From positions 2,070,001-2,102,000 of the forward strand of contig NZ_CP065936.1 of NCBI RefSeq assembly GCF_003367075.2: DNA of 32,000 nucleotides. Direction: 5' to 3'. This DNA is from Cylindrospermopsis raciborskii Cr2010 (lineage in GTDB: Bacteria; Cyanobacteriota; Cyanobacteriia; Cyanobacteriales; Nostocaceae). Shown in pieces: positions 1,151-22,055 of the stretch. The translations under genes and the position numbers were made by a program. The notes under the pieces were generated by a model, which did no database searches, was not told the DNA's origin, and saw nothing but the letters and a program-made list of their open reading frames with translations. The number at the start of each line of letters is the position of its first letter. The first letter of the stretch is position 1.

Positions 1151-1527
1151 CTGAGATTTTTTACTGAAACTGGGGAATTTAACTTCCGTTCCAGTAAGGA
1201 TTGTTATTATGGTCTGACAGTTTGCTATACAATAGCATAAATTGTCAGCTCACTGGGTCCGCAAATTGCCTCCAGGAATTTAACCCAAATGAGACCTGCC
1301 ATTTTACAACCGACATTCTTACACTTTCCGGCAATATTTCGTCGACCTATGAACCGGAGATATTCTGGGAGAACTCGGTTATGAGTTCCAACGGTCAACA
1401 TTATCTCCCCAGTCAGACATTAATCTTGACCGACTGACGACCAAAAACCCGATCCAAGAAAGCCTCCTATATTAGCCTCACCAGCGAAGCTGCTCGCCGT
1501 GAACTACCATTGCTCCTTTATTAATAG

Positions 1528-4325: not shown

Positions 4326-4527
4326 GAAATTTAATTGTTGAGGTTGTGGAAGTAGTACATTTTACGGTTAAGCACATCTAGTCTGAATTTTTCCGTTTAT
4401 TCTCTTCCTAATTCATAGATGCTAGCACCTACAGTAGTGAGTATACCAGCATTAATTCCCAACTAGAACCTAAACTAATTTGTGACCCCAGTAGGATAAT
4501 GCACCAAATACCAAGAAAGGTAAATGC

Positions 4528-4758
4528 TCATAATTGAAGCATAAAAAGCATTTGAGACTCTCTAGCTGTGCGGGTTTTTTCAAATTCCGTCTCGCTAGTA
4601 TATAGAAACCGCTCGGCAAAATTAAACCAGCGATTTAATTGTGTGATTATCCATTCTCTAATGGATGCTAAAGCCAAATACAAAGCTAAAGACCATAAAC
4701 AAGAACCAGCGATGGCTACTTTATCTATCGTGAATTGAAAAGGTAATATATCAAGCAT
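4528..4758 (-). CDS. Hypothetical small membrane protein, possibly itself a remnant
   Basis: This is a 76-aa ORF with one hydrophobic stretch ('VAIAGSCLWSLALYLALASI'). After its stop the same frame continues with more hydrophobic sequence ('AFTFLGIWCIILLGSQ...'), which suggests an interrupted larger gene. I recognise no family. Confidence 0.2.
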   Translation of the reverse strand: MLDILPFQFTIDKVAIAGSCLWSLALYLALASIREWIITQLNRWFNFAERFLYTSETEFEKTRTARESQMLFMLQL

Positions 4759-4843
4759 ACTAAAGATATTAAGTGATAAACTCCCATTTTACTTGAATTT
4801 GTCCTCAAATCCATATTTTATACTTAGAACTGATTATGTCATT

Positions 4844-6397
4844 ATGCCTAAACAATTTAACACTGCTGGCCCCTGCAAAGCCAACATTCACTATATGCTC
4901 TCTCCCACAGGGCGACTACCTCAGTTGAAAGCATTAATTGATGGAGAAAATTACTTTATCATTCATGCACCGCGACAAGTAGGCAAAACCACTGCTATGA
5001 TGGCCTTAGCTCAAGAATTAACTGACAGTAGGCAATACCTAGCTGTGATGTTAACCGTAGAAACCGGTGCGCCATTTCCAGATGCACCAGAACAAGCGCA
5101 ACAAAGTATCCTCAGACGTTGGCAGAATGAAATTCGGTTCCGAAAATTACCCTTGCCCACTTTAACCCAAATTCAAAGGGAGACCGAGACTTCTCCCCTA
5201 GATATTCAAACAGTCCTGCAAGGGTGGGCCATGGCTTCCCCCCTACCCTTAGTGGTCTTTCTGGATGAAATTGATTCTTTAGAGGATCAAACCCTCATAT
5301 CCATCCTTAGACAGTTGCGAGCGGGTTATCCCAATCGTCCCCAGGGTTTCCCCCATTCGGTGGGCTTAATTGGGATGCGGGACGTGCGGGACTACAAGGT
5401 TAAATCTGGTGGAAGTGAACGACTCAATACGTCTAGTCCGTTTAATATCAAGGCTGAATCCCTAACTTTAAGTAATTTTACTTTTACAGATGTCCAAAAT
5501 TTATATGAACAACATACAACAGCTACGGGACAGGTGTTTACCCCGGAAGCAGTTCAACAGGCATATTATTTAACCGATGGACAACCATGGTTAGTTAACG
5601 CCCTAGCTCGTCAAGCTACCCAGGTGTTAGTCCAGGATATGAATGAACCCATTACTGCTGAGGTGATTAACCAAGCCAAAGAAATGCTCATTCAGCGTCA
5701 GGATACCCATTTGGATAGTTTAGCAGAAAGATTACGGGAAGCGCGGGTCAAAACTATTATTGAACCAATTTTAGCAGGTGAGGACTTACCCGACGTACCA
5801 CCGGATGATATTCGTTACGTGCTGGATTTAGGTCTGTGTCGAGATCAAGGACAAGGACTGGAAATTGCCAATCCAATTTATAAAGAAGTTCTACCTTTAG
5901 TACTAAGTTATACAACTAGGGTTTCTATTGGAGCAATTGAACCTCTGTGGCTAAATGAACAAGGGGAATTATTACCCAATAAATTATTACATGCTTTTCT
6001 GGAGTTTTGGCGACAACACGGAGAACCATTGCTCAAGAGTGCGCCCTACCATGAGATTGCCCCCCATTTAGTTTTGATGGCATTTTTACACCGGGTGGTA
6101 AATGGTGGTGGTACGTTAGAACGGGAATATGCCATTGGTTCTGGGAGAATGGATATTTGTTTACGATATGGCAAGGTAGTGATGGGTATGGAACTCAAGG
6201 TGTGGCGTGAAAGAAAGTCAGATCCGTTAATCAAGGGTTTGACCCAACTGGATAAATACCTGGATGGGTTAGGATTAGATACAGGTTGGTTAGTGATTTT
6301 CGATCGCCGTCCCGGTTTACCACCCATGGGAGAGAGGATTAGTACGGAGGAGATTATTAGTCCTAATGGGCGCACCATTACCCTCATTCGTAGTTAG
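4844..6397 (+). CDS. P-loop NTPase / PD-(D/E)XK nuclease fusion protein, array copy 1 (modules K-A-X)
   Basis: The long ORF carries Walker A 'HAPRQVGKTT', Walker B 'LVVFLDEIDS' and a C-terminal 'EREYAIGSGRMDICLRYGKVVMGMELKVW' (D...E-x-K). The start is set at ATG 4844 ('MPKQFNTAGPC'), by homology with the other copies, rather than the track's TTG at 4793. Confidence 0.8.
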   Translation: MPKQFNTAGPCKANIHYMLSPTGRLPQLKALIDGENYFIIHAPRQVGKTTAMMALAQELTDSRQYLAVMLTVETGAPFPDAPEQAQQSILRRWQNEIRFRKLPLPTLTQIQRETETSPLDIQTVLQGWAMASPLPLVVFLDEIDSLEDQTLISILRQLRAGYPNRPQGFPHSVGLIGMRDVRDYKVKSGGSERLNTSSPFNIKAESLTLSNFTFTDVQNLYEQHTTATGQVFTPEAVQQAYYLTDGQPWLVNALARQATQVLVQDMNEPITAEVINQAKEMLIQRQDTHLDSLAERLREARVKTIIEPILAGEDLPDVPPDDIRYVLDLGLCRDQGQGLEIANPIYKEVLPLVLSYTTRVSIGAIEPLWLNEQGELLPNKLLHAFLEFWRQHGEPLLKSAPYHEIAPHLVLMAFLHRVVNGGGTLEREYAIGSGRMDICLRYGKVVMGMELKVWRERKSDPLIKGLTQLDKYLDGLGLDTGWLVIFDRRPGLPPMGERISTEEIISPNGRTITLIRS

Positions 6398-6455
6398 ATT
6401 CCCATAAATTTGAACCACATCTGAATCACAGTAGTACCTTAACTTATTGTCAATT

Positions 6456-8012
6456 ATGCCTAAACACTTTAATACTGCTGGACCTTGTCAATCTGATATC
6501 CACTATATGCTCTCTCCCACAGGGCGACTACCTCAGTTGAAAGCATTAATTGATGGACGCAATTACTTTATCATTCATGCACCACGACAAGTGGGCAAAA
6601 CCACTGCTATGATGGCCCTAGCTCAAGAATTAACTGACAGTGGGCAATACCTAGCTGTGATGTTAACCGTAGAAACCGGTGCGCCATTTCCAGATGCACC
6701 AGAACAAGCGCAACAAAGTATCCTCAGACGTTGGCAGAATGAAATTCGGTTCCGAAAATTACCCTTGCCCACTTTAACCCAAATTCAAAGGGAGACCGAG
6801 ACTTCTCCCCTAGATATTCAAACAGTCCTGCAAGGGTGGGCCATGGCTTCCCCCCTACCCTTAGTGGTCTTTCTGGATGAAATTGATTCTTTAGAGGATC
6901 AAACCCTCATATCCATCCTTAGACAGTTGCGAGCGGGTTATCCCAATCGTCCCCAGGGTTTCCCCCATTCGGTGGGCTTAATTGGCATGCGGGACGTGCG
7001 GGACTACAAGGTTAAATCTGGTGGGAGTGAACGACTTAATACATCTAGTCCGTTCAATATCAAGGCTGAATCCCTAACTTTAAGTAATTTTAGTTTTACA
7101 GATGTGCAAAATTTATACGAACAACATACAACAGCTACAGGGCAAGTATTTACCCTGGGAGCAGTTCAACAGGCATATTATTTAACCGATGGACAACCAT
7201 GGTTAGTTAACGCCCTAGCTCGTCAAGCTACCCAGGTGTTAGTAAAGGATGTGAAGCAACCCATTACTGCTGAGGTGATTAACCAAGCCAAGGAAATCCT
7301 CATCCAGCGTCAGGATACCCATTTAGATAGTTTGGCGGAAAGATTACGGGAAGAGCGGGTTAGGGATATTATTCAACCCATGTTAGCTGGTGAAGACTTA
7401 GCTGATACAGCAGAAGATAATTTACGATATGTCCTAGACTTGGGTTTATGTCGTCGCGATCGCGGGGGTGCATTAGAAATTGCTAACCCCATTTATCGGG
7501 AGATTTTACCTAAGACCTTAGCTGCAGTGGCGATCGCATCTCTAACTTCTGTGGAACCCAACTGGTTAAACTCTGATGGTACTCTCAATCCTCAAATTCT
7601 ATTAAACTCTTTCTTGGAATTTTGGCGACAACATGGGGAACCATTACTCAAAAGTGCGCCCTATCATGAAATTGCTCCCCATTTGGTGTTAATGGCATTT
7701 TTACACCGAGTGGTAAATGGTGGTGGTACGTTAGAGCGGGAATATGCCATTGGTTCTGGGAGAATGGATATTTGTTTACGCTATGGCAAGGTGGTGATGG
7801 GTATGGAACTCAAGGTGTGGCGTGAAAGAAAGTCAGATCCGTTAATCAAGGGTTTAACCCAACTGGATAAATATCTGGATGGGTTAGGATTAGATACGGG
7901 TTGGTTAGTGATTTTCGATCGCCGTCCCGGGTTACCCCCCATGGGAGAGAGGATTAGTACGGAGGAGGTTATTAGTCCTAGTGGGCGCACCATTACCCTG
8001 ATTCGTAGTTAG
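6456..8012 (+). CDS. P-loop NTPase / PD-(D/E)XK nuclease fusion protein, array copy 2 (modules Q-A-Y)
   Basis: Same motifs as copy 1. The start is set at ATG 6456 ('MPKHFNTAGPC'); the track starts at TTG 6447. The V2 cassette is form Y ('RDIIQPMLAGEDLADTAEDNLRYVLDLGLCRRDRGG...'). Confidence 0.8.
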   Translation: MPKHFNTAGPCQSDIHYMLSPTGRLPQLKALIDGRNYFIIHAPRQVGKTTAMMALAQELTDSGQYLAVMLTVETGAPFPDAPEQAQQSILRRWQNEIRFRKLPLPTLTQIQRETETSPLDIQTVLQGWAMASPLPLVVFLDEIDSLEDQTLISILRQLRAGYPNRPQGFPHSVGLIGMRDVRDYKVKSGGSERLNTSSPFNIKAESLTLSNFSFTDVQNLYEQHTTATGQVFTLGAVQQAYYLTDGQPWLVNALARQATQVLVKDVKQPITAEVINQAKEILIQRQDTHLDSLAERLREERVRDIIQPMLAGEDLADTAEDNLRYVLDLGLCRRDRGGALEIANPIYREILPKTLAAVAIASLTSVEPNWLNSDGTLNPQILLNSFLEFWRQHGEPLLKSAPYHEIAPHLVLMAFLHRVVNGGGTLEREYAIGSGRMDICLRYGKVVMGMELKVWRERKSDPLIKGLTQLDKYLDGLGLDTGWLVIFDRRPGLPPMGERISTEEVISPSGRTITLIRS

Positions 8013-8053
8013 ATTCCGATAAATTTGAATCACACCTTAAATTATTGCCGATT

Positions 8054-9607
8054 ATGTTTAAACACTTTAATACTGCTGGACCTTGCCAATCTGATATCCA
8101 CTATATGCTCTCTCCCACAGGGCGACTACCTCAGTTGAAAGCATTAATTGATGGACGCAATTACTTTATCATTCATGCACCGCGACAAGTGGGTAAAACC
8201 ACTGCCATGATGGCCCTAGCTCAAGAATTAACTGACAGTGGACAATACCTAGCTGTGATGTTAACCCTAGAAACCGGTGCGCCATTTCCAGATGCACCAG
8301 AACAAGCGCAACAAAGTATCCTGAGACGTTGGCAGAATGAAATTCGGTTTCGAAAATTACCTTTGCCTAATTTAACACAAATTGAAACAGAGACTGAGAC
8401 CTCTCCCTTAGATATTCAAACAGTTCTGCAAGCTTGGGCCATGGCTTCCCCTCTACCTTTAGTTGTGTTTTTGGATGAAATTGATTCTTTGGAAGATCAA
8501 ACTCTCATATCCATTCTCAGACAATTACGAGCGGGTTATCCCAATCGTCCCCAGGGTTTTCCCCATTCGGTGGGCTTAATTGGCATGCGGGATGTGCGGG
8601 ACTACAAGGTTAAATCTGGTGGAAGTGAACGACTCAATACGTCTAGTCCGTTTAATATCAAGGCTGAATCCCTAACTTTGAGTAATTTTAGTTTTACAGA
8701 TATTCAAAATTTATATGAACAACATACAACAGCTACGGGACAGGTGTTTACCCTGGGAGCAGTTCAACAGGCATATTATTTAACTGATGGACAACCATGG
8801 TTAGTTAACGCCCTAGCTCGTCAAGCTACCCAGGTATTAGTCCAGGATGTGAATCAACCCATTACTGCTGAAGTGATTAACCAAGCCAAAGAAATCCTCA
8901 TCCAGCGTCAGGATACCCATTTGGATAGTTTAGCAGAAAGATTACGGGAAGAGCGGGTCAAAGCTATTATTGAACCAATTTTAGCAGGTGAAGACTTACC
9001 CGACATACCACCAGATGATATTCGTTATGTGCTGGATTTAGGACTGTGTCGAGATCAAGGACAAGGCTTGGAAATTGCCAATCCAATTTATAAGGAAGTT
9101 CTACCTCTAGTGCTAAGTTACACAACTAGGGTTTCTATTGGAGCAATTGAACCTCTGTGGCTAAATGAACAAGGGGAACTATTACCTGATAAATTATTAC
9201 ATGCTTTTCTGGAGTTTTGGCGACAACACGGGGAACCATTACTCAAAAGTGCGCCCTACCATGAGATTGCTCCCCATTTGGTGTTGATGGCATTTTTACA
9301 TCGGGTAGTTAATGGTGGTGGTACTTTAGAGCGGGAATATGCCATTGGTTCTGGAAGAATGGATATTTGTTTACGCTATGGCAAGGTGGTAATGGGTATG
9401 GAACTCAAGGTGTGGCGTGAAAGAAAGTCAGATCCGTTAATCAAGGGTTTGACCCAACTGGATAAATACCTGGATGGGTTAGGATTAGATACGGGTTGGT
9501 TAGTGATTTTCGATCGCCGTCCCGGTTTACCACCTATGGGAGAGAGGATTAGTACGGAGGAGGTTATTAGTCCCACTGGGCGCACTATTACCCTAATTCG
9601 TAGTTAG
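8054..9607 (+). CDS. P-loop NTPase / PD-(D/E)XK nuclease fusion protein, array copy 3 (modules Q-A'-X)
   Basis: Same motifs. The start is set at ATG 8054 ('MFKHFNTAGPC'). Its V1 form A differs from the other A copies mostly at synonymous sites. Confidence 0.8.
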   Translation: MFKHFNTAGPCQSDIHYMLSPTGRLPQLKALIDGRNYFIIHAPRQVGKTTAMMALAQELTDSGQYLAVMLTLETGAPFPDAPEQAQQSILRRWQNEIRFRKLPLPNLTQIETETETSPLDIQTVLQAWAMASPLPLVVFLDEIDSLEDQTLISILRQLRAGYPNRPQGFPHSVGLIGMRDVRDYKVKSGGSERLNTSSPFNIKAESLTLSNFSFTDIQNLYEQHTTATGQVFTLGAVQQAYYLTDGQPWLVNALARQATQVLVQDVNQPITAEVINQAKEILIQRQDTHLDSLAERLREERVKAIIEPILAGEDLPDIPPDDIRYVLDLGLCRDQGQGLEIANPIYKEVLPLVLSYTTRVSIGAIEPLWLNEQGELLPDKLLHAFLEFWRQHGEPLLKSAPYHEIAPHLVLMAFLHRVVNGGGTLEREYAIGSGRMDICLRYGKVVMGMELKVWRERKSDPLIKGLTQLDKYLDGLGLDTGWLVIFDRRPGLPPMGERISTEEVISPTGRTITLIRS

Positions 9608-9670
9608 AAAAATGCGATCGCTAAGTAAAACGTAAATTATTATTTTGCTACTTATAAATTATACCTTACT

Positions 9671-11212
9671 ATGCCTAAACAATTTAACACTGCTGGACCT
9701 TGTCAATCTGATATCCACTATATGCTCTCTCCCACAGGGCGACTACCTCAGTTAAAAGCGTTAATTGATGGACGCAATTACTTTATCATTCATGCACCGC
9801 GACAAGTGGGCAAAACCACTGCTATGATAGCTTTAGCCCAAGAATTAACTGATAGTGGGGAGTATACAGCAGTGATGCTCTCCGTGGAAGTGGGGTCGGT
9901 TTTTCCTGATGAACCAGAACGTGCTGAAAGAGCCATTTTGGGTTCTTGGCAAGATGCAATTGATATTTGGCTTCCGCAAGACCTCCATCCCCCTTTTGAC
10001 CCAGAGCGTAGGGAGAATATTGGTGCTTTCCTGAAAAGTTGGGCAAAAAGCTCTCCTCGTCCCCTAGTGGTGTTCATTGATGAAATTGACTCGTTGCAAA
10101 ATCAAACGTTGATTTCAGTATTGCGACAGTTACGGGATGGTTTTCCCCGTCGTCCCCAGGGTTTTCCCCATTCGGTGGGCTTAATTGGCATGCGGGATGT
10201 GCGGGACTACAAGGTTAAATCTGGTGGAAGTGAACGACTCAATACGTCTAGTCCGTTTAATATCAAGGCTGAGTCCCTAACTTTGAGTAATTTTAGTTTT
10301 ACAGATATTCAAAATTTATATGAACAACATACAACAGCTACGGGACAGGTGTTTACCCTGGGAGCAGTTCAACAGGCATATTATTTAACTGATGGACAAC
10401 CATGGTTAGTTAACGCCCTAGCTCGTCAAGCTACCCAGGTATTAGTCCAGGATGTGAATCAACCCATTACTGCTGAGATGATTAACCAAGCCAAAGAAAT
10501 CCTCATTCAACGCCAGGATACCCATTTAGATAGCTTAGCAGAGCGATTACGGGAAGAGCGGGTTAAGACCATTATTGAACCAATTTTAGCAGGTGAGGAC
10601 TTACCCGACGTACCACCGGATGATATTCGTTACGTGCTGGATTTAGGTCTGTGTCGAGATCAAGGACAAGGACTGGAAATTGCCAATCCAATTTATAAAG
10701 AAGTTCTACCTTTAGTGCTAAGTTATACAACTAGGGTTTCTATTGGAGCAATTGAACCTCTGTGGCTAAATGAACAAGGGGAACTATTACCTGATAAATT
10801 ATTACATGCTTTTCTGGAGTTTTGGCGACAACACGGAGAACCATTGCTCAAAAGTGCGCCCTACCATGAGATTGCTCCCCATTTAGTTTTGATGGCATTT
10901 TTACACCGGGTGGTAAATGGTGGTGGTACGTTAGAACGGGAATATGCCATTGGTTCTGGGAGAATGGATATTTGTTTACGCTATGGCAAGGTGGTGATGG
11001 GTATGGAACTCAAGCTGTGGCGTGAAAGAAAGTCGGATCCTTTAATTAAGGGTTTAACCCAACTGGATAAATATCTAGATGGGTTAGGATTAGATACGGG
11101 TTGGTTAGTGATTTTCGATCGCCGTCCTGGTTTACCACCCATGGGAGAGAGGATTAGTACGGAGAAGGTTATTAGTCCTAGGGGACGCACCATTACCCTC
11201 ATTCGTAGTTAG
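9671..11212 (+). CDS. P-loop NTPase / PD-(D/E)XK nuclease fusion protein, array copy 4 (modules Q-B-X)
   Basis: Same scaffold. V1 is form B ('LSVEVGSVFPDEPERAERAILGSWQDAIDIWLPQDLHPPFDPERRENIGAFLKSWAKSSPRP'), which is 4 codons shorter than form A. Confidence 0.8.
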   Translation: MPKQFNTAGPCQSDIHYMLSPTGRLPQLKALIDGRNYFIIHAPRQVGKTTAMIALAQELTDSGEYTAVMLSVEVGSVFPDEPERAERAILGSWQDAIDIWLPQDLHPPFDPERRENIGAFLKSWAKSSPRPLVVFIDEIDSLQNQTLISVLRQLRDGFPRRPQGFPHSVGLIGMRDVRDYKVKSGGSERLNTSSPFNIKAESLTLSNFSFTDIQNLYEQHTTATGQVFTLGAVQQAYYLTDGQPWLVNALARQATQVLVQDVNQPITAEMINQAKEILIQRQDTHLDSLAERLREERVKTIIEPILAGEDLPDVPPDDIRYVLDLGLCRDQGQGLEIANPIYKEVLPLVLSYTTRVSIGAIEPLWLNEQGELLPDKLLHAFLEFWRQHGEPLLKSAPYHEIAPHLVLMAFLHRVVNGGGTLEREYAIGSGRMDICLRYGKVVMGMELKLWRERKSDPLIKGLTQLDKYLDGLGLDTGWLVIFDRRPGLPPMGERISTEKVISPRGRTITLIRS

Positions 11213-11275
11213 AAAAATGCGATCGCTAAGTAAAACGTACTTTATTATTTTGATGATTATAAATTATACTTTATC

Positions 11276-12832
11276 ATGGCTAAACAATTTAACACTGCTG
11301 GTCCGTGCAAAGCCAACATTCACTATATGCTTTCTCCCACAGGGCGACTACCTCAGTTGAAAGCATTAATTGATGGAGAAAATTACTTTATCATTCATGC
11401 ACCGCGACAAGTAGGCAAAACCACTGCTATGATGGCCCTAGCTCAAGAATTAACTGACAGTGGGCAATACCTAGCTGTGATGTTAACCGTAGAAACCGGT
11501 GCGCCATTTCCAGATGCACCAGAACAAGCGCAACAAAGTATCCTCAGACGTTGGCAGAATGAAATTCGGTTCCGAAAATTACCCTTGCCCACTTTAACCC
11601 AGATTCAAAGGGAGACCGAGACTTCTCCCCTAGATATTCAAACAGTCCTACAAGGGTGGGCCATGGCTTCCCCCCTACCCTTAGTTGTCTTTCTGGATGA
11701 AATTGATTCCTTAGAGGATCAAACCCTCATATCCATCCTTAGACAGTTGCGAGCGGGTTATCCCAATCGTCCCCAGGGTTTCCCCCATTCGGTGGGCTTA
11801 ATTGGGATGCGGGACGTGCGGGACTACAAGGTTAAATCTGGTGGAAGTGAACGACTCAATACGTCTAGTCCGTTTAATATCAAGGCTGAATCCCTAACTT
11901 TAAGTAATTTTAGTTTTACAGATGTCCAAAATCTATATGAACAACATACAACAGCTACGGGACAGGTGTTTACCCCGGAAGCAGTTCAACAGGCATATTA
12001 TTTAACCGATGGACAACCATGGCTAGTTAACGCCCTAGCTCGTCAAGCTACCCAGGTGTTAGTCCAGGATGTGAATGAACCCATTACTGCTGAGGTGATT
12101 AACCAAGCCAAAGAAATCCTCATTCAGCGTCAGGATACCCATTTGGATAGTTTAGCAGAAAGATTACGGGAAGAGCGGGTCAAAGCTATTATTGAACCAA
12201 TTTTAGCAGGTGAGGACTTACCAGATACCCCAGAGGATGATCGCCGGTTTTTGCTAGATTTAGGCTTAGTTAAGCGTAGTCCTTTGGGTGGACTAACCAT
12301 TGCCAATCCCATTTACCAGGAGGTGATCCCTCGTGTTTTATCCCAGGGTAGTCAGGACAGTTTACCTCAAATTCAACCCACTTGGTTAAATACTGACAAT
12401 AGTTTAAATCCCCAAGCTCTATTAAATGCTTTTCTGGAATTTTGGCGACAACATGGGGAACCATTACTCAGAAGTGCGCCCTACCATGAGATTGCTCCCC
12501 ATTTGGTATTAATGGCATTTTTACACCGGGTGGTAAATGGTGGTGGTACATTAGAACGGGAATATGCCATTGGTTCTGGGAGAATGGATATTTGTTTACG
12601 ATATGGCAAGGTGGTGATGGGTATGGAACTCAAGGTGTGGCGTGAAAGAAAGTCAGATCCGTTAATCAAGGGTTTGACCCAACTGGATAAATATCTAGAT
12701 GGGTTAGGATTAGATACGGGTTGGTTAGTGATTTTCGATCGCCGTCCTGGTTTACCACCCATGGGAGAGAGGATTAGTACGGAGAAGGTTATTAGTCCTA
12801 GGGGACGCACCATTACCCTCATTCGTAGTTAG
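11276..12832 (+). CDS. P-loop NTPase / PD-(D/E)XK nuclease fusion protein, array copy 5 (modules K-A-Z)
   Basis: Same scaffold. V2 is form Z ('TPEDDRRFLLDLGLVKRSPLGGLTIANPIYQEVIPRVLSQGSQDSLPQIQPTWLNTDNSLNPQALLNAF'). Confidence 0.8.
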   Translation: MAKQFNTAGPCKANIHYMLSPTGRLPQLKALIDGENYFIIHAPRQVGKTTAMMALAQELTDSGQYLAVMLTVETGAPFPDAPEQAQQSILRRWQNEIRFRKLPLPTLTQIQRETETSPLDIQTVLQGWAMASPLPLVVFLDEIDSLEDQTLISILRQLRAGYPNRPQGFPHSVGLIGMRDVRDYKVKSGGSERLNTSSPFNIKAESLTLSNFSFTDVQNLYEQHTTATGQVFTPEAVQQAYYLTDGQPWLVNALARQATQVLVQDVNEPITAEVINQAKEILIQRQDTHLDSLAERLREERVKAIIEPILAGEDLPDTPEDDRRFLLDLGLVKRSPLGGLTIANPIYQEVIPRVLSQGSQDSLPQIQPTWLNTDNSLNPQALLNAFLEFWRQHGEPLLRSAPYHEIAPHLVLMAFLHRVVNGGGTLEREYAIGSGRMDICLRYGKVVMGMELKVWRERKSDPLIKGLTQLDKYLDGLGLDTGWLVIFDRRPGLPPMGERISTEKVISPRGRTITLIRS

Positions 12833-12895
12833 AAAAATGCGATCGCTAAGTAAAACGTACTTTATTATTTTGATGATTATAAATTATACTTTATC

Positions 12896-14449
12896 ATGGC
12901 TAAACAATTTAACACTGCTGGTCCGTGCAAAGCCAACATTCACTATATGCTTTCTCCCACAGGGCGACTACCTCAGTTGAAAGCATTAATTGATGGAGAA
13001 AATTACTTTATCATTCATGCACCGCGACAAGTAGGCAAAACCACTGCTATGATGGCCCTAGCTCAAGAATTAACTGACAGTGGGCAATACCTAGCTGTGA
13101 TGTTAACCGTAGAAACCGGTGCGCCATTTCCAGATGCACCAGAACAAGCGCAACAAAGTATCCTCAGACGTTGGCAGAATGAAATTCGGTTCCGAAAATT
13201 ACCCTTGCCCACTTTAACCCAGATTCAAAGGGAGACCGAGACTTCTCCCCTAGATATTCAAACAGTCCTACAAGGGTGGGCCATGGCTTCCCCCCTACCC
13301 TTAGTTGTCTTTCTGGATGAAATTGATTCCTTAGAGGATCAAACCCTCATATCCATCCTTAGACAGTTGCGAGCGGGTTATCCCAATCGTCCCCAGGGTT
13401 TCCCCCATTCGGTGGGCTTAATTGGGATGCGGGACGTGCGGGACTACAAGGTTAAATCTGGTGGGAGTGAACGACTTAATACGTCTAGTCCGTTTAATAT
13501 CAAGGCTGAATCCCTAACTTTAAGTAATTTTAGTTTTACAGATGTCCAAAATCTATATGAACAACATACAACAGCTACGGGACAGGTGTTTACCCCGGAA
13601 GCAGTTCAACAGGCATATTATTTAACTGATGGACAACCATGGTTAGTTAACGCCCTAGCTCGTCAAGCTACCCAGGTGTTAGTCCAGGATGTGAATGAAC
13701 CCATTACTGCTGAAGTGATTAACCAAGCAAAAGAAATTCTCATTCAGCGTCAGGATACCCATTTGGATAGTTTAGCAGAAAGATTACGGGAAGCACGGGT
13801 TAGGGATATTATTCAACCCATGTTAGCTGGTGAAGACTTAGCTGATACAGCAGAAGATAATTTACGATATGTCCTAGACTTGGGTTTATGTCGTCGCGAT
13901 CGCGGGGGTGGACTAGAAATTGCTAACCCCATTTATCGGGAGATTTTACCTAAGACCTTAGCTGCAGTGGCGATCGCATCTCTAACTTCTGTAGAACCCA
14001 ACTGGTTAAACTCTGATGGTACTCAATCCTCAAATCCTCTTAAACTCTTTCTTGGAATTTTGGCGACAACATGGGGAACCATTACTTAAAAGTGCGCCCT
14101 ATCATGAGATTGCCCCCATTTGGTGTTAATGGCATTTTTACACCGGGTAGTAAATGGTGGTGGTACGTTAGAGCGGGAATATGCCATTGGTTCTGGGAGA
14201 ATGGATATTTGTTTACGCTATAGCAAGGTGGTGATGGGTATAGAAATTAAGATGTGGCGTGAAAGAAAGTCAGATCCTTTAATTAAGGGTTTGACCCAAC
14301 TGGATAAATACCTGGATGGGTTAGGATTAGATACAGGTTGGTTAGTGATTTTCGATCGCCGTCCTGGTTTACCACCTATGGGAGAGAGGATTAGTACGGA
14401 GGAGGTTATTAGTCCTAGGGGACGCACTATTACCCTCATTCGTAGTTAG
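12896..14449 (+). pseudogene. P-loop NTPase / PD-(D/E)XK nuclease fusion, array copy 6 (modules K-A-Y), disrupted by two compensating frameshifts
   Basis: Compared with copy 7 there is a 2-bp deletion ('actctcaatcc' becomes 'actcaatcc', about 14024) and a 1-bp deletion in a C-run (C6 becomes C5, about 14113-14117). The frame is restored after about 90 nt, but the shifted segment contains TAA at 14087-14089. This splits the gene into the track ORFs 12896-14089 and 14120-14449, which share one frame. Confidence 0.75.
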
Positions 14450-14507
14450 ATTCCCATAAATTTGAACCACATTTGAATCACAGTAGTACCTTAACTTATT
14501 GTCAATT

Positions 14508-16052
14508 ATGCCTAAACACTTTAATACTGCTGGACCTTGTCAATCTGATATCCACTATATGCTCTCTCCCACAGGGCGACTACCTCAGTTGAAAGCATTA
14601 ATTGATGGACGTAATTACTTTATCATTCATGCACCGCGACAAGTGGGCAAAACCACTGCTATGATAGCTTTAGCCCAGGAATTAACTGATAGTGGGGAGT
14701 ATACAGCAGTGATGCTCTCCGTGGAAGTGGGGTCGGTTTTTCCTGATGAACCAGAACGTGCTGAAAGGGCTATTTTGGGTTCTTGGCAAGATGCAATTGA
14801 TATTTGGCTTCCGGAAGACCTCCATCCCCCTTTTGACCCGGAGCGTAGGGAGACTATTGGTGCTTTCCTGAAAAGTTGGGCAAAAAGCTCTCCTCGTCCT
14901 CTAGTGGTCTTCATTGATGAAATTGACTCATTGCAAAATCAAACCTTGATTTCGGTATTGCGACAGTTACGGGATGGTTTTCCCCGTCGTCCTCGGGGTT
15001 TCCCCCATTCGGTGGGCTTAATTGGGATGCGGGACGTGCGGGACTACAAGGTTAAATCTGGTGGGAGTGAACGACTTAATACGTCTAGTCCGTTTAATAT
15101 CAAGGCTGAATCCCTAACTTTAAGTAATTTTAGTTTTACAGATGTCCAAAATCTATATGAACAACATACAACAGCTACGGGACAGGTGTTTACCCCGGAA
15201 GCAGTTCAACAGGCATATTATTTAACTGATGGACAACCATGGTTAGTTAACGCCCTAGCTCGTCAAGCTACCCAGGTGTTAGTCCAGGATGTGAATGAAC
15301 CCATTACTGCTGAAGTGATTAACCAAGCAAAAGAAATTCTCATTCAGCGTCAGGATACCCATTTGGATAGTTTAGCAGAAAGATTACGGGAAGCACGGGT
15401 TAGGGATATTATTCAACCCATGTTAGCTGGTGAAGACTTAGCTGATACAGCAGAAGATAATTTACGATATGTCCTAGACTTGGGTTTATGTCGTCGCGAT
15501 CGCGGGGGTGGACTAGAAATTGCTAACCCTATTTATCGGGAGATTTTACCTAAGACCTTAGCTGCAGTGGCGATCGCATCTCTAACTTCTGTAGAACCCA
15601 ACTGGTTAAACTCTGATGGTACTCTCAATCCTCAAATTCTCTTAAACTCTTTCTTGGAATTTTGGCGACAACATGGGGAACCATTACTTAAAAGTGCGCC
15701 CTATCATGAGATTGCCCCCCATTTGGTGTTAATGGCATTTTTACACCGGGTAGTAAATGGTGGTGGTACGTTAGAGCGGGAATATGCCATTGGTTCTGGG
15801 AGAATGGATATTTGTTTACGCTATAGCAAGGTGGTGATGGGTATAGAAATTAAGATGTGGCGTGAAAGAAAGTCAGATCCGCTAATTAAGGGTTTGACCC
15901 AACTGGATAAATACCTGGATGGGTTAGGATTAGATACAGGTTGGTTAGTGATTTTCGATCGCCGTCCTGGGTTACCACCTATGGGAGAGAGGATTAGTAC
16001 GGAGGAGGTTATTAGTCCTAGGGGACGCACTATTACCCTCATTCGTAGTTAG
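14508..16052 (+). CDS. P-loop NTPase / PD-(D/E)XK nuclease fusion protein, array copy 7 (modules Q-B-Y)
   Basis: Same scaffold, with the start at ATG 14508. The nuclease motif variant 'RYSKVVMGIEIKMW' still keeps the E-x-K residues. Confidence 0.8.
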   Translation: MPKHFNTAGPCQSDIHYMLSPTGRLPQLKALIDGRNYFIIHAPRQVGKTTAMIALAQELTDSGEYTAVMLSVEVGSVFPDEPERAERAILGSWQDAIDIWLPEDLHPPFDPERRETIGAFLKSWAKSSPRPLVVFIDEIDSLQNQTLISVLRQLRDGFPRRPRGFPHSVGLIGMRDVRDYKVKSGGSERLNTSSPFNIKAESLTLSNFSFTDVQNLYEQHTTATGQVFTPEAVQQAYYLTDGQPWLVNALARQATQVLVQDVNEPITAEVINQAKEILIQRQDTHLDSLAERLREARVRDIIQPMLAGEDLADTAEDNLRYVLDLGLCRRDRGGGLEIANPIYREILPKTLAAVAIASLTSVEPNWLNSDGTLNPQILLNSFLEFWRQHGEPLLKSAPYHEIAPHLVLMAFLHRVVNGGGTLEREYAIGSGRMDICLRYSKVVMGIEIKMWRERKSDPLIKGLTQLDKYLDGLGLDTGWLVIFDRRPGLPPMGERISTEEVISPRGRTITLIRS

Positions 16053-16110
16053 ATTCCCATAAATTTGAACCACATTTGAATCACAGTAGTACCTTAACTT
16101 ATTGTCAATT

Positions 16111-17646
16111 ATGCCTAAACACTTTAATACTGCTGGACCTTGTCAATCTGATATCCACTATATGCTCTCTCCCACAGGGCGACTACCTCAGTTGAAAGCA
16201 TTAATTGATGGACGTAATTACTTTATCATTCATGCACCGCGACAAGTGGGCAAAACCACTGCTATGATAGCTTTAGCCCAGGAATTAACTGATAGTGGGG
16301 AGTATACAGCAGTGATGCTCTCCGTGGAAGTGGGGTCGGTTTTTCCTGATGAACCAGAACGTGCTGAAAGGGCTATTTTGGGTTCTTGGCAAGATGCAAT
16401 TGATATTTGGCTTCCGGAAGACCTCCATCCCCCTTTTGACCCGGAGCGTAGGGACACTATTGGTGCTTTCCTGAAAAGTTGGGCAAAAAGCTCTCCTCGT
16501 CCTCTAGTGGTCTTCATTGATGAAATTGACTCATTGCAAAATCAAACCTTGATTTCGGTATTGCGACAGTTACGGGATGGTTTTCCCCGTCGTCCTCGGG
16601 GTTTCCCCCATTCGGTGGGCTTAATTGGGATGCGGGACTACAAGGTTAAATCTGGTGGAAGTGAACGACTCAATACGTCTAGTCCGTTTAATATCAAGGC
16701 TGAATCCCTAACTTTAAGTAATTTTAGTTTTACAGATGTCCAAAATCTATATGAACAACATACAACAGCTACGGGACAGGTGTTTACCCCGGAAGCAGTT
16801 CAACAGGCATATTATTTAACCGATGGACAACCATGGTTAGTTAACGCCCTAGCTCGTCAAGCTACCCAGGTGTTAGTCCAGGATGTGAATGAACCCATTA
16901 CTGCTGAGGTGATTAACCAAGCCAAAGAAATTCTCATCCAGCGTCAGGATACCCATTTGGATAGTTTAGCAGAAAGATTACGGGAAGAGCGGGTCAAAGC
17001 TATTATTGAACCAATTTTAGCAGGTGAGGACTTACCAGATACCCCAGAGGATGATCGCCGGTTTTTGCTAGATTTAGGCTTAGTTAAGCGTAGTCCTTTG
17101 GGTGGACTAACCATTGCCAATCCCATCTACCAGGAGGTGATTCCTCGTGTTTTATCCCAGGGTAGTCAGGACAGTTTACCTCAAATTCAACCCACTTGGT
17201 TAAATACTGACAATAGTTTAAATCCCCAAGCTCTATTAAATGCTTTTCTGGAATTTTGGCGACAACACGGGGAACCATTACTCAGAAGTGCGCCCTATCA
17301 TGAGATTGCTCCCCATTTGGTATTGATGGCATTTTTGCATCGGGTAGTTAATGGTGGTGGTACGTTAGAGCGGGAATATGCCATTGGTTCTGGGAGAATG
17401 GATATTTGTTTACGCTATGGCAAGGTGGTGATGGGTATGGAACTAAAGGTGTGGCGTGAAAGAAAGTCAGATCCGCTAATCAAGGGTTTGACCCAACTGG
17501 ATAAATACCTAGATGGGTTAGGATTACATACTGGTTGGTTAGTGATTTTCGATCGCCGTCCCGGATTACCACCCATGGGAGAGAGGATTAGTACGGAGGA
17601 GGTTATTAGTCCTAGTGAGCGCACCATTATCCTCATTCGTAGTTAG
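16111..17646 (+). CDS. P-loop NTPase / PD-(D/E)XK nuclease fusion protein, array copy 8 (modules Q-B-Z), with a 3-codon in-frame deletion
   Basis: Same scaffold, with the start at ATG 16111. 'GMRDVRDYKV' becomes 'GMRDYKV' through a 9-bp loss between the direct repeats GCGGGAC...GCGGGAC (about 16631). Confidence 0.75.
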   Translation: MPKHFNTAGPCQSDIHYMLSPTGRLPQLKALIDGRNYFIIHAPRQVGKTTAMIALAQELTDSGEYTAVMLSVEVGSVFPDEPERAERAILGSWQDAIDIWLPEDLHPPFDPERRDTIGAFLKSWAKSSPRPLVVFIDEIDSLQNQTLISVLRQLRDGFPRRPRGFPHSVGLIGMRDYKVKSGGSERLNTSSPFNIKAESLTLSNFSFTDVQNLYEQHTTATGQVFTPEAVQQAYYLTDGQPWLVNALARQATQVLVQDVNEPITAEVINQAKEILIQRQDTHLDSLAERLREERVKAIIEPILAGEDLPDTPEDDRRFLLDLGLVKRSPLGGLTIANPIYQEVIPRVLSQGSQDSLPQIQPTWLNTDNSLNPQALLNAFLEFWRQHGEPLLRSAPYHEIAPHLVLMAFLHRVVNGGGTLEREYAIGSGRMDICLRYGKVVMGMELKVWRERKSDPLIKGLTQLDKYLDGLGLHTGWLVIFDRRPGLPPMGERISTEEVISPSERTIILIRS

Positions 17647-17711
17647 ATTCCCATAAATTTGAACCACACCTTAAATTATTGCCGATTATGCCCAAACACT
17701 TTAACATTTAG
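17647..17711 (+). pseudogene. Truncated ninth array unit: spacer plus the first 7 codons ('MPKHFNI*')
   Basis: 17647-17687 matches the spacer that follows copy 2. The ATG at 17688 is followed by 'cccaaacactttaaca', which matches the gene 5' end. Homology then stops and a TAG follows at 17709-17711. Confidence 0.8.
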
Positions 17712-17814: not shown

Positions 17815-20388
17815 TTATAACTTATCGACTTGTGAAACTTCCCCACTTACAGGAGTTTGTAAACTGTGTTTTTCAGCTTCTTCCCAGATAGTTTTACCAT
17901 TGGCATCAACTTTGACAAACTTGTACTCAAAGCTAGTAGACGCAGGTAAGGAGACCTTAACGCTCCAGGTAGGATAACTAACCGCAGAGAGCTTAACACC
18001 GGAAGTGGGTTCCCAATTGCCTAGTAAGGGACTATTGCCAACCAAATACACATTCTCACCTGGTTTTGTGGTTGCATTTTTAGCGGTGAAAGTCACATCA
18101 GTTTGGGGTTTGTCACAAGCGTAGCGTTGACAAACTACATCCGGAGCATCACTCTTACCATCTTTAACGGCTACAATCAGGTTAATATATTCACCCATAG
18201 CCCAGCTAAGAGGACGTATAGAGCGTGTGGAAGTGCCAGGAAGATGAGATGCGGGAGTAATTGTTTCCCAACCTGTAATGGTAGTGCTGTTATTCCAAAC
18301 TTGCTCAGGAATAAATCCTGCTTCTGAAGACATGACTTTCAGATCTTTCAGATATTTTTGACCAGCACACCCATTACCAGATTTAGCAATTTCGTAAATC
18401 CCACGTTCAGCGGTGAAAATTGGCCACAGACGACCACGACCACTAGTATCAAAATTACGGTCGTCATTGTATTCACCATAGCCATCGTAGTTATACCGGA
18501 ACCAAGCTTCCGCTTCTACACCATCCTTAGAAATGGTTTGTTTCAAAATTTCATCATATTCAGGAATGGTTTCTAGAATTGTCCAGTCGTTGGCACTCAT
18601 CACCCCTAAACGTACCAACTCTAAAAAGCCACCATCAATGATGTAGCGCTGATCATGTGTTCCACCACCATTACCATAGGTCAGTTGCACACCATCATTG
18701 GGATTTTTATCGCTGGTGATTCTTACATAATACTGTTTATTACCATGATAACCAGTAGTTGTAAATGTCCAATTGGCAACGTTATTACGCCACTCATCGG
18801 CTTTTTTGAGATAATACTCAGCCGCACCTGGATCATTGGATTTTTTAGCCAAGTCAGCTGCACAGACTAATCCTGCAATTTCAGCAGCAATGGTGGAAGG
18901 TGAATAACCACGCATTTCTTCCCAGCGTTCTTGCTGAGTATAGGGTCCATATTTGGCTAAATATTCAGCTGCTAACTTAATTTTAGGCCACAAATCCGTG
19001 CGGTTAAGTTTCCAAGCCAAGATGATGGGCATTCCAGTTTGGTCCATCTGGGTGCCATTCCAGTATATCCTACCATCTACATAGTTATTTTGTGGAAAAC
19101 GACCAGGACGAGAATAGGGATCATCACTGGTAGTAGTCTGCATCTGAACATTGAAGAAATAGTCAACAGCTTCATTAGCTGACTCTGTATCACCAGCAGC
19201 AATCAAAGAACTAGCAAATTTGAACAAGTCACGGGGCCAAACCAGGTGGTAACCACCTTGATTTTTATCAGTGTTAGTTTCTCCCCAAGGTGTAGCAGGT
19301 CCTGCTACCATCGCACCATTACTCTTGTCTTGAATACTCTTCAGATTCATTGCTGCTAGGTAGTACTGGTCATCAGCCAATCCATTTTGATCACTGAGTT
19401 TAGCAGTATAAGCTACCCATTCTTTGGTGTAATCATTTTCTACCGCAGCCAAATCACTATTTAGAGTAGCATTTGCTACATTCATGGCAGCTTGCTCACT
19501 GTTACCAAATGCCAGTGCCACGTCAAAAGAAATCTTGGTATCAGTGGTATTGCCAAAATCTACCCAGCCAATTTGAGCAACGTTTCCACCAACAGCATTA
19601 TCATAATGCCAGTCCATGGTTTTATCGCCTGCTCCAACAAAAAGGTCTGTATAGCCATCGTTTTGAGCCACAAACCCATTAGACACCATTAAAGTGCCAC
19701 CAACGGTCTTCCAAGGTAGGGAAGTAGTGACAGCTGAAGAGGTAGAATTAGGCTCGGAAGCGGCTAAAAAGGTTCGACCATTGGATGACAGAGTGCGAGA
19801 GTTATCTCCACCCGTTGCTTGTGGTCCACTACAAGTATTAGCAGCACTACCACTACCCGAATTGTTGATAGATGGATTATTCAGCAGGTAGAGGTTATAG
19901 TCTTGGACTGTCTTTCCTGGTTCAAGAGTAGCGAAAGTAACTCTTTCAATTACAGTAGGACGATTGGGATCACTAAAAAATCTCTTAGTAATTTTCCAAC
20001 GTTTGTCTTTATCTGTAGTTGTTACTTCCCACACCATGGAGCGTTTATTAACCTGAGTAACTTTATGGTCTTGCTTGCGCTCTTCGTCACCCCAGGTTCT
20101 TTTGGCATCGGTGACTAAAAATTGCAAGTCAACATTTTGCACGTTATCCACAGTGGGATAAAACACCTCTGTTAAAATACCTTCTCCACCAGTGAAATAA
20201 ACATTGGATTTTTTGCCGGCTGAAGTACCCACAAAATCCTTGACTGAGGTTGCCCACAAGGAGGAAGCTCCAGGTGCACAAGGTGCATTTTCCGCTAAAA
20301 CAATTCCAGGATCTAGAAATACTGAACCTAGAGATACACAGGCAAAAACAAGTGATGCCAGTAAAATTGATAACTTTGACTTTCGCAT
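17815..20388 (-). CDS. Secreted GH15 glucoamylase/glucodextranase with a C-terminal CBM20 starch-binding domain
   Basis: 'GGYHLVWPRDLFKFASSLIAAGD' and the overall layout fit a bacterial GH15 enzyme with a glucodextranase-type N-domain. The C-terminus 'PGENVYLVGNSPLLGNWEPTSGVKLS...YPTWSVKVSLPASTSFEYKFVKVDANGKTIWE' is CBM20-like. The start is set at ATG 20388 ('MRKSKLSILLASLVFACVSLG', signal-peptide-like). The track ORF extends to a GTG at 20436. Confidence 0.85.
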   Translation of the reverse strand: MRKSKLSILLASLVFACVSLGSVFLDPGIVLAENAPCAPGASSLWATSVKDFVGTSAGKKSNVYFTGGEGILTEVFYPTVDNVQNVDLQFLVTDAKRTWGDEERKQDHKVTQVNKRSMVWEVTTTDKDKRWKITKRFFSDPNRPTVIERVTFATLEPGKTVQDYNLYLLNNPSINNSGSGSAANTCSGPQATGGDNSRTLSSNGRTFLAASEPNSTSSAVTTSLPWKTVGGTLMVSNGFVAQNDGYTDLFVGAGDKTMDWHYDNAVGGNVAQIGWVDFGNTTDTKISFDVALAFGNSEQAAMNVANATLNSDLAAVENDYTKEWVAYTAKLSDQNGLADDQYYLAAMNLKSIQDKSNGAMVAGPATPWGETNTDKNQGGYHLVWPRDLFKFASSLIAAGDTESANEAVDYFFNVQMQTTTSDDPYSRPGRFPQNNYVDGRIYWNGTQMDQTGMPIILAWKLNRTDLWPKIKLAAEYLAKYGPYTQQERWEEMRGYSPSTIAAEIAGLVCAADLAKKSNDPGAAEYYLKKADEWRNNVANWTFTTTGYHGNKQYYVRITSDKNPNDGVQLTYGNGGGTHDQRYIIDGGFLELVRLGVMSANDWTILETIPEYDEILKQTISKDGVEAEAWFRYNYDGYGEYNDDRNFDTSGRGRLWPIFTAERGIYEIAKSGNGCAGQKYLKDLKVMSSEAGFIPEQVWNNSTTITGWETITPASHLPGTSTRSIRPLSWAMGEYINLIVAVKDGKSDAPDVVCQRYACDKPQTDVTFTAKNATTKPGENVYLVGNSPLLGNWEPTSGVKLSAVSYPTWSVKVSLPASTSFEYKFVKVDANGKTIWEEAEKHSLQTPVSGEVSQVDKL

Positions 20389-20600
20389 AAGGTTGAAAAC
20401 AAGGAGAACACTTAACTCATCAATTGTCATCGGCACAAGTAATAGTCGTATTAAATACTAACTATTATTAATATCACATTAGTAGATAGTAAATTAAAAA
20501 CTCAAAATCTACTTATGTTGATTGCTCCACTACCCACCCTCCACCCTCAAACTGTTGTAATGTCATGATTTTAACATAGTTATTTTGGCATCATTGTTGG

Positions 20601-22013: not shown

Positions 22014-22055
22014 GGTTTGTTCTTTTTCGTAGATGTTAGTTGATTTACTCTGAGA

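Follow-up and report, generated by a model that had tools for sequence, protein, structure and literature searches.

A tandem array of eight CyrO-family genes with two variable modules in Cylindrospermopsis raciborskii Cr2010

The cyanobacterium Cylindrospermopsis raciborskii Cr2010 carries, within a 32,000-nucleotide stretch of its genome (contig NZ_CP065936.1, positions 2,070,001 to 2,102,000 of the forward strand; hereafter, the window), a head-to-tail array of eight genes of the CyrO family, each predicted to encode an AAA+ ATPase fused to a nuclease. The units differ from one another chiefly in two internal blocks, V1 and V2, which occur as a few discrete, old alleles that are reshuffled by recombination, and the same two-block pattern recurs in shorter tandem sets of other genera. 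We tentatively regard the array as a repertoire of single-polypeptide, ATP-gated nucleases whose trigger specificity would reside in V1 and V2 and whose role would lie in conflict (defence), a reading whose chances we put at slightly under even. An earlier sequence-only reading of the window had recognized the array; what it had missed is the CyrO family name, the frameshift in the sixth unit, the two-by-three cassette mosaic, and the shorter tandem sets in other genera.

Array layout and the cassette mosaic

The array occupies positions 4844-17646 on the plus strand with a period of 1598-1620 bp, and its products are 511-518 amino acids (aa) long; the Walker A (GKT) and Walker B (DEID) motifs and the nuclease signature (GRMD...E-x-K) are found in all eight units. 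These values agree with the sequence-only reading, which had described eight same-strand units of ~1.6 kb, each with a ~515-aa product and the three motifs. Some of its details shift: the end that it set at 17711 takes in a 65-nt stub of a ninth unit beyond the array's last stop codon at 17646; the spacers, put at ~50-65 nt, are short as stated and measure 41-63 nt; and the copies, called intact and non-identical, are indeed non-identical (81-95% pairwise DNA identity), with U6 broken in the window and intact in a finished chromosome of the same strain. The units and other array features are listed below (units run from the ATG to the end of the stop codon; the box position is the start of the conserved FNTAGPC box).

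U1, 4844-6397, plus strand: 517 aa; box at 4856; V1-A (about 5030-5263), V2-X (about 5741-6000)
U2 (P0031), 6456-8012, plus strand: 518 aa; box at 6468; V1-A (6642-6875), V2-Y (about 7353-7613)
U3 (P0022), 8054-9607, plus strand: 517 aa; box at 8066; V1-A (8240-8473), V2-X (about 8951-9210)
U4 (P0001), 9671-11212, plus strand: 513 aa; box at 9683; V1-B (9857-10078), V2-X (about 10556-10815); the modelled copy
U5, 11276-12832, plus strand: 518 aa; box at 11288; V1-A (11462-11695), V2-Z (about 12173-12433)
U6, 12896-14449, plus strand: box at 12908; V1-A, V2-Y; frameshifted in the window into open reading frames (ORFs) 12896-14089 (397 aa) and 14120-14449 (109 aa)
U7, 14508-16052, plus strand: 514 aa; box at 14520; V1-B (14694-14915), V2-Y (about 15393-15653)
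U8 (P0021), 16111-17646, plus strand: 511 aa; box at 16123; V1-B (16297-16518), V2-Z (about 16987-17247); VRD missing after GMRD
Ninth-unit stub, 17647-17711, plus strand: 65 nt; a 53-nt-type spacer plus ATGCCCAAACACTTTAACATTTAG (six codons, MPKHFN), followed by a stop codon; right-hand limit of the array
Example of an inter-unit spacer, 6398-6455, plus strand: from the U1 stop to the U2 ATG

Variable sites among the units cluster in V1 and V2; outside these blocks, protein identity is about 97%. V1 is a helical insertion that follows strand 2 and precedes the Walker B strand (about residues 60-135 of U4), and V2 (about residues 300-385) takes in helices 2 and 3 and the hairpin of the winged-helix domain, together with the linker that leads to the nuclease. 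V1 exists as two alleles (A and B) with 44% aa identity and V2 as three (X, Y, and Z) with 56-60% aa identity. Typing of 18 units at four loci in three species (L001, L003, L004, and L006) recovers all six V1 by V2 combinations: the units are ordered AX, AY, AX, BX, AZ, AY, BY, BZ in Cr2010 and AY, AX, BX, AZ, BZ, AZ, BX in C. curvispora. At the sequence level, this mosaic demonstrates that V1 and V2 reassort freely by recombination through the near-identical sequence between them. U2-U5 of Cr2010 are positional orthologues of C. curvispora units 1-4 (95-99% nucleotide identity, with a flanking gene at 98.8%) and retain their order; the array thus predates the split between the two species.

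Average dN/dS values (Nei-Gojobori) differ among the parts of the gene. The constant parts have a dS of about 0.24 and a dN/dS of about 0.1, sequences within one allele class have a dS of about 0.1 and a dN/dS of 0.09, and comparisons between alleles give a dS of about 1.9, which is saturated, and a dN/dS of 0.2-0.3. By this measure, every part of the protein shows the mark of purifying selection, and the cassettes are shown to be, as judged from dS, far older than the sequence around them. Across the family, too, no other segments vary as much as V1 and V2.

The arrangement of the array is the same in CP091284.1, the finished chromosome of strain Cr2010 (locus L001), which aligns to window positions 1-21206 and contains all eight units, each of them intact and in unchanged order, thus bearing out the copy number given in the sequence-only reading. 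Within the array, the two sequences differ at 45 positions, including the three bases deleted from U6 in the window: the loss of 2 nt at 14021 and of 1 nt at 14112 leads to the stop at 14089, whereas U6 in CP091284 is an intact 518-aa gene. This frameshift is probably a sequencing error, because the window assembly has indel errors of the long-read type elsewhere. Another 25 of the differences are clustered at 15095-15395 in U7, where a 311-bp tract (15090-15400) is identical to the U6 tract (from 13490) in the window but to the U2 tract in CP091284 and stops at the V2 cassette boundary; this reflects either recent gene conversion between units or an artefact of read mapping or polishing. Positions 1-4800 of the window differ from CP091284 by ~7% (indels at 223 positions, of which 155 have a homopolymer context, and C/T-biased substitutions), and from about 4800 on the two are almost identical. 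The first 4800 nt thus look like an unpolished long-read stretch, and raw long-read error would account for the absence there of any ORF of at least 100 aa; the CP091284 counterpart encodes an HSP70-like protein, two unknown proteins of 203 and 474 aa, a fatty-acid desaturase, and a 127-aa protein.

These visible imperfections (the ~7% error in positions 1-4800 and the broken U6) are what might suggest that the real locus has far fewer copies, but such an assembly artefact is effectively refuted and has next to no chance of being correct: in addition to the agreement with the finished chromosome, a JGI metagenome contig of independent origin, 99.8% identical, runs from within U2 through U3 and U4 into U5 and thereby spans three unit junctions; the sister species C. 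curvispora (CP060822, L003) has seven units, with a left flank shared with Cr2010 and a different right flank; and the units differ from each other by 5-19% in DNA, hence they are not identical repeats that could be collapsed.

Stop-to-ATG spacers are 41, 58, or 63 nt in length and belong to three sequence types. The 63-nt type, which follows U3, U4, and U5, contains the HIP1 octamer GCGATCGC (one per spacer, at 9614, 11219, and 12839), and each V2-Y cassette contains a pair (at 7456 and 7530 in U2, 13896 and 13970 in U6, and 15496 and 15570 in U7); no HIP1 occurs in the V2-X and V2-Z cassettes of the window's array. In all, 9 of the 11 HIP1 octamers in the window lie inside the array, with 0.07 expected by chance. 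A scan of the array for promoters and terminators returned counts at or below the shuffled expectation, with a terminator-like site in none of the spacers, and therefore indicates nothing firm about transcription units. Antisense ORFs of 113 aa are present on the minus strand opposite the nuclease-domain part of U1 (6046-6387) and U5 (12481-12822); the other six units lack them, and they are probably chance ORFs rather than genes.

Protein architecture and the CyrO family

The sequence-only reading described each product as a fusion of an NTPase and a nuclease, and both halves find support in profile and structure comparisons. Among three window proteins searched against Pfam (U4, U5, and U7), AAA_16 matches the two V1-B copies at 33.6-34.7 bits (cut-off, 32.6) and the V1-A copy at 27.7 bits, below the cut-off; AAA_35 falls slightly under its Pfam cut-off, and NucS_C matches weakly at residues 413-476 (E, 0.008-0.04). 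These three proteins have no match to AAA-ATPase_like (PF09820) at an E of ≤0.1 and none to PDDEXK_9 (PF08011). Of the two domains that the sequence-only reading expected, the AAA_16-type N-terminal domain is thus present, whereas the PDDEXK_9 domain is not found in the window proteins, to which it is related only at the superfamily level. Searches with the units yielded nothing significant in NCBIfam and only P-loop-level matches among PDB sequences.

An AlphaFold2 model of U4, built on an alignment of 74 diverse relatives, has a pLDDT of 92.9 and a pTM of 0.90. Its core is a five-stranded alpha/beta domain with Walker A (K48) and Walker B (hhhhDE; D137-E138), followed by a helical lid, and G47, K48, T49, and D137 are invariant or nearly so in the alignment. 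Between strand 2 and Walker B, the model has extra helices (residues 73-77, 82-100, and 117-127) in a segment that is acidic, and the lid is followed by a winged helix made up of helices 284-293, 296-307, and 316-325 and a hairpin at 328-337. Foldseek searches of the PDB with the full model return the archaeal ATPase PAB2304 (2qen, 2e-11) and SSO1545 (2fna), then ORC/Cdc6 proteins (7jgr and 2qby, 1e-9 to 1e-8), RuvB, and RFC; top matches share the AAA+ base, the lid, and the winged helix, in alignments of 375-439 columns.

Modelled alone, the C-terminal domain has a pLDDT of 92 and matches almost exclusively PD-(D/E)XK nucleases, with probabilities of up to 0.99 and modest E values (from 2.7e-3); they include Hjc, SfsA, Bax1, Cas4 SSO0001, NucS/EndoMS, DdmD, restriction enzymes, MGME1, and RecU. 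Six residues of this domain (E35, R58-E59, D68, E81, and K83) are at least 90% conserved, and D68, E81, and K83 correspond to D433, E446, and K448 of U4, the D...E-x-K of the nuclease fold. According to both Pfam and the model, the U4 protein ends in the nuclease domain, with no C-terminal repeat or sensor region. In this model, the protein is shown to consist of four parts: (i) the conserved N-terminal box, (ii) an AAA+ base and lid of the ORC/Cdc6 or STAND-like archaeal-ATPase type, (iii) a winged helix, and (iv) a predicted C-terminal nuclease; that is, an ATPase like those of ORC/Cdc6 or archaeal ATPases with its winged helix, fused to a putative PD-(D/E)XK nuclease. The ORC/Cdc6 and Arch_ATPase proteins (PF01637; 2qen and 2fna) are the best structural matches but share only 11-16% identity with CyrO, which differs from them in the fused nuclease and in the acidic V1 and V2.

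The products of U2, U3, U4, and U8 match proteins of Cylindrospermopsis (Raphidiopsis) raciborskii Cr2010 exactly. Database names assign the unit proteins to the CyrO family ("polyketide biosynthesis operon protein CyrO"), and three proteins annotated as CyrO (P0051, P0061, and P0039) are 76-78% identical to U4 over 100% of its length (E, around 1e-262), with P0051 at 78%. The gene cyrO is the last ORF of the cylindrospermopsin (cyr) cluster, for which a regulatory role was proposed from weak similarity; it is absent from or unlinked to the cyr clusters of other producers, persists in the cyr-less strain CS-509, and was judged by its authors not to be essential for toxin production. CyrO of the toxin cluster resembles the array proteins in family, length, motifs, and architecture, and its subfamily has the same V2 cassette types, but published descriptions have it as a lone gene on the border of the cluster. 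In the literature, we found no account of the array, of a tandem organization of CyrO, of the cassettes, of the CyrO nuclease domain, or of a tested function, and the portions of Kaur et al. 2020 (PMC7159879) covered by a text search contain nothing on the CyrO family.

At 50% identity, the family amounts to 5258 clusters with an E of ≤1e-3, 757 of which have an E of ≤1e-30. Its distribution is patchy across cyanobacteria, myxobacteria, Desulfobacterales, and others, with aa identities of 70-78% across distant cyanobacterial orders and 45-60% to the myxobacteria and Desulfobacterales. Among the 74 distant relatives, 14 match PDDEXK_9 (best E, 4.7e-7), 11 match AAA-ATPase_like (best E, 9.8e-7), 8 match NucS_C, and 21 match ATPase_2, with NPHP3_N (24/74) and nSTAND5 (4/74) as minor echoes. 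By these profile matches, the CyrO family is a branch of a wider ATPase-plus-nuclease assemblage that includes DUF1703 and is not itself a Pfam member of DUF1703. DUF1703 proteins (PF09820 plus PF08011) similarly join an N-terminal AAA-type ATPase to a C-terminal PD-(D/E)XK domain, some distant CyrO-family members match both of their Pfam models, and they too undergo lineage-specific expansion: in Cardinium cCpun there are 25 paralogues, shaped by recombination and horizontal transfer and of unknown function (PMC6387759). The Cardinium paralogues, however, are dispersed and divergent (mean identity, 39%) without homogenization, in contrast to the tandem copies of Cr2010 with their near-identity outside the cassettes.

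The two-module pattern extends beyond Cylindrospermopsis. A scan of one genome per species returned 70 loci, among which two- or three-copy tandem sets occur in Pseudanabaena, Phormidium tenue, Synechococcales, other cyanobacterial metagenome-assembled genomes (MAGs), and one Desulfobacteraceae MAG. In 10 of the 10 tandem sets analysed from other genera, a deltaproteobacterial one among them, differences between paralogues are concentrated in V1 and/or V2, often in one module only (e.g., V2 in L009, with a difference of 0.45 versus ≤0.09 elsewhere; V1 in L010, 0.52; and V2 in L050, 0.31). Among pairs drawn from 185 family members and having a constant-part identity of 90% or more, identity is bimodal in V1 (about 0.42-0.46 or ≥0.93) as well as in V2 (about 0.6 or ≥0.95), and V2 types X, Y, and Z turn up again in as many as 14 lineages of the constant region. 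CyrO proper falls in a second Cylindrospermopsis subfamily, where two V1 and three V2 types again occur in all six combinations. Judging from these comparisons, cassette exchange at V1 and V2 characterizes the family as a whole, and the eight-unit array takes it further than any other known case.

Genes of this second CyrO-like subfamily (515 aa, 78% identical to U4) are interleaved with psbA, which encodes D1, in other strains of C. raciborskii. Such psbA-interleaved loci are L080 (JBPFSD010000001, 1944313-1965860), L081, and L082 (CP195152), with gene orders such as psbA-cyrO-psbA and psbA-cyrO-psbA-cyrO-psbA. The DNA of the psbA-plus-cyrO segment is repeated at 94-98% identity in a copy number that varies by strain; the V2 types of the psbA-linked copies are Y and Z, with 88-92% identity to the array alleles, and their V1 alleles are different. 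In Chrysosporum bergii ANA360D, CyrO-like fragments lie on nine short contigs or contig ends (L017, L031, L032, L044, L048, L065, L068, L074, and L076), the signature of a multicopy or tandem set that breaks short-read assembly, which implies that long arrays may be underreported in draft genomes.

Genomic setting of the array and its relatives

In the window, the array sits between the desaturase-side flank and a convergent cluster:

Minus-strand cluster, 17815-31969, minus strand: nine co-directional ORFs with oxidative and carbohydrate themes, plus one unknown

The cluster encodes a GH15/CBM20 glucodextranase-like enzyme, a DyP peroxidase, a kelch protein like galactose oxidase or glyoxal oxidase, two xylose-isomerase-like TIM-barrel proteins, a DUF4440 protein, a pentapeptide-repeat protein, a 162-aa protein without a Pfam match, a ferritin-like protein, and a Laminin_G_3-GMC oxidoreductase. 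Neither the window nor the CP091284 flank contains transposase, integrase, recombinase, reverse transcriptase, or cas genes, as the sequence-only reading had stated for most of these classes; no terminal or inverted repeats bounding the units were found, the units all being direct and in one orientation; and there is no antitoxin-like partner in or beside the array. No gene or repeat therefore supports a mobile element (transposon, integron, or shufflon) as the origin of the window's array. Rfam and tRNA scans of the window found nothing.

In C. curvispora (CP060822, L003, 17965-20868), the array's last stop codon is followed after 15 nt by a rhomboid gene, and this gene and an intein-containing dnaB (LAGLIDADG) form the right flank in place of the GH15 cluster; this difference in right flanks means that the array end coincides with a rearrangement breakpoint between the two species. 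The locus is present in both species with different numbers of units, and within the family copy number varies between strains. Elsewhere, a VWA/CyrO/BioY locus is single-copy in two C. raciborskii strains and has a pair of copies in R. curvata; an N6-MTase/NspV pair lies 4 kb off. Synechocystis LKSZ1 has a single copy in a neutral context.

Plasmid matches number 16, and four of the plasmids belong to a single P. galeata strain; a search for homologues in phages gave none. On P. galeata pPg_01, the family gene adjoins DISARM drmA/DUF1998, BrnTA, and a NACHT protein, and on pPg_03 and pPg_05 it adjoins a tyrosine recombinase. Chromosomal relatives also sit within dense clusters of defence genes: in L010 (Phormidium tenue FACHB-1050, 479-14114), two CyrO-like genes are flanked on one side by a PbeC-like ATPase, the PD-DExK candidate PDC-S02, and an HNH gene and on the other by DndC-DndD-DndE, and in L014 (Pseudanabaena minima, 3505-17499), three CyrO-like genes are flanked by PDC-S02 on one side and by a truncated DndC and an Hhe-like helicase-nuclease of 1713 aa on the other.

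Possible roles of the array

The architecture, the conserved catalytic motifs, the discrete old cassettes, their free reassortment, the purifying selection, and the recurrence of the pattern lead us to infer, tentatively, a defence role with trigger recognition by V1 and V2 and licensing by ATP. V1 and V2 would be the specificity determinants that recognize a trigger (a foreign protein or a nucleic-acid feature), and, with the trigger bound, ATP-dependent assembly and nuclease activity would be permitted; by keeping many combinations, the cell would recognize a wider range of triggers, and the array would serve an anti-phage or anti-plasmid (conflict) function. Array growth would proceed by unequal crossing-over, with the 5′ leader plus the gene as the unit. 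The patchy distribution of the family, its strain-variable copy number, its carriage on plasmids, and the defence neighbours of relatives are consistent with a function of the conflict type.

Several observations weigh against this reading. The neighbours of the array in the window are metabolic, without defence genes, and the loci of several relatives are likewise in neutral contexts. Among 120 nearest-neighbour ORFs at 31 loci, DndC appears 5-6 times, DndD/PbeC 3-4 times, XisH/XisI 3 times, and DndB and Uma2 twice each, but these are raw counts without a background control, and the defence-island neighbours come mostly from one lineage of related Pseudanabaenaceae loci. A PADLOC-DB 2.0 search with the units returned no significant model (the best being mad8, E of 0.007, and PDC-S01, E of 0.02-0.04). 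No dN/dS of >1 was obtained in V1 or V2 as a Nei-Gojobori average with saturated dS between alleles. The presence of all six combinations has a probability of 0.32 under random pairing with the observed allele counts, which rules it out as a sign of selection for completeness. Lastly, V1 and V2 are net acidic (pI 4.4-5.3), a poor fit to simple DNA recognition. The sequence-only reading had offered defence as inference only; the idea has gained a measure of support from the defence islands around relatives but none from PADLOC.

By general AAA+ knowledge, V1 would fall at the DNA-contacting insertion site of the initiator clade, and V2 covers the winged helix; these positions would correspond to the two DNA-contacting sites of ORC/Cdc6-type proteins. 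Basic DNA-binding surfaces are nonetheless not supported, and the acidity of both modules makes a protein ligand, an autoinhibitory role, or a DNA-mimic role at least as likely as DNA reading.

Other systems share parts of this logic. In type I restriction-modification hsdS cassette systems (e.g., pneumococcal SpnD39III), two by three target-recognition domains are reshuffled by recombination into six specificities. The likeness is one of logic only, in that two variable recognition modules are parted by conserved, recombining sequence and two times three makes six; there is no homology, and the Cr2010 array has no site-specific recombinase, inverted repeats, or silent partial genes. Its combinations are all full-length, simultaneously present, and in one orientation, so the array is not a case of phase variation. 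STAND/NLR-like (Avs) proteins and RADAR RdrA are alike in having an NTPase switch with a fused or partnered effector, an association with defence islands, and variable sensor parts; RdrA gives a weak profile match (8hr7 and 8fnt; E, 0.03-0.04), and PF09820 is listed for it. CyrO differs from the STAND/Avs proteins in lacking a C-terminal repeat sensor and a PADLOC match and in having its effector at the C terminus rather than the N terminus.

A bolder version of the repertoire, which we consider quite improbable, would make the array a combinatorial receptor cluster. Co-expressed paralogues, having identical assembly surfaces, would co-assemble in ORC style into mixed ATPase rings with many more than six recognition states, and the set would be renewed by gene conversion among tandem and dispersed (including psbA-linked) copies; the array would then be a bacterial counterpart of plant NLR clusters with a nuclease effector, in a widespread and previously unrecognized immune family.

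The array could instead be a neutral by-product, an unlikely explanation in which gene conversion homogenizes similar tandem duplicates of an ATPase-nuclease, irrespective of what that protein does, V1 and V2 stand out only as the stretches under least constraint, too divergent for conversion to act, and no repertoire function exists. Concerted evolution predicts just the contrast seen between the constant parts and the V alleles in dS (0.24 versus about 1.9), and it fits the U7 tract that matches U6 in one assembly and U2 in the other, the dN/dS of <1 in the V modules, the occurrence of six of six combinations that chance would yield 32% of the time, and the position of V1 and V2 as the most variable segments across the family. 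Unconstrained sequence, however, would give a continuum rather than a few discrete old alleles, and each allele class is strongly conserved (dN/dS of 0.09; at least 93% identity across strains and species). V2 types also persist across two subfamilies and up to 14 lineages, paralogues of independent tandem sets in distant taxa diverge in these very modules (frequently in one alone, the remaining sequence being 90% identical or more), and unit order has been conserved since the species split.

It is decidedly unlikely that the units are selfish or addictive genes that spread horizontally, amplify in place (e.g., by provoking breaks or recombination nearby), and are kept because they are hard to lose. 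The aa identities between distant cyanobacterial orders (70-78%) and to myxobacteria and Desulfobacterales (45-60%) do suggest horizontal transfer, and single-gene insertions between housekeeping genes, strain-to-strain copy differences, the presence of one copy on each of several plasmids of one cell, the tyrosine recombinase adjoining the gene on two P. galeata plasmids, and the repeats of psbA plus a CyrO-like gene all fit such a history. The GC content of the array (0.42-0.46) is higher than that of its flanks, as was noted for cyrO (PMC3922686). Yet these same features are typical of defence genes; the array and its borders are free of transposase and integrase genes, terminal repeats, and antitoxin-like partners, the search in phages gave no copies, and the strong, long-lasting purifying selection and the stability of unit order between species speak against this explanation.

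A housekeeping or regulatory role, either as a regulator of cylindrospermopsin or as a DNA repair or recombination ATPase-nuclease (a RuvB-like motor with an Hjc-like resolvase), is very improbable: the name and the proposed regulatory role derive from the cyr cluster, and RuvB and Holliday-junction resolvases are among the fold matches, but these matches are at the fold level only (10-24% identity), the behaviour of cyrO in other producers, in CS-509, and in toxin production argues against the former role, the family is widespread in nonproducers and noncyanobacteria, and its patchy distribution, plasmid carriage, and copy number of 1 to 8 are ill-fitting.

Taken with the same two-module pattern in unrelated tandem sets, the array points to V1 and V2 as the putative specificity portion of the protein and to the ATPase core, lid, and nuclease as its machinery, so that cassette swaps and catalytic mutants could put the family to the test. 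This large family is spread over cyanobacteria, myxobacteria, and sulfate reducers. Should its function be defence, CyrO would constitute a single-gene system whose repertoire is held as an array of recombining paralogues, rather than generated by phase variation or hypermutation, and its host would be a filamentous, bloom-forming toxin producer whose genome is among the smallest of such cyanobacteria; the label of "cylindrospermopsin regulator" would then be retired.

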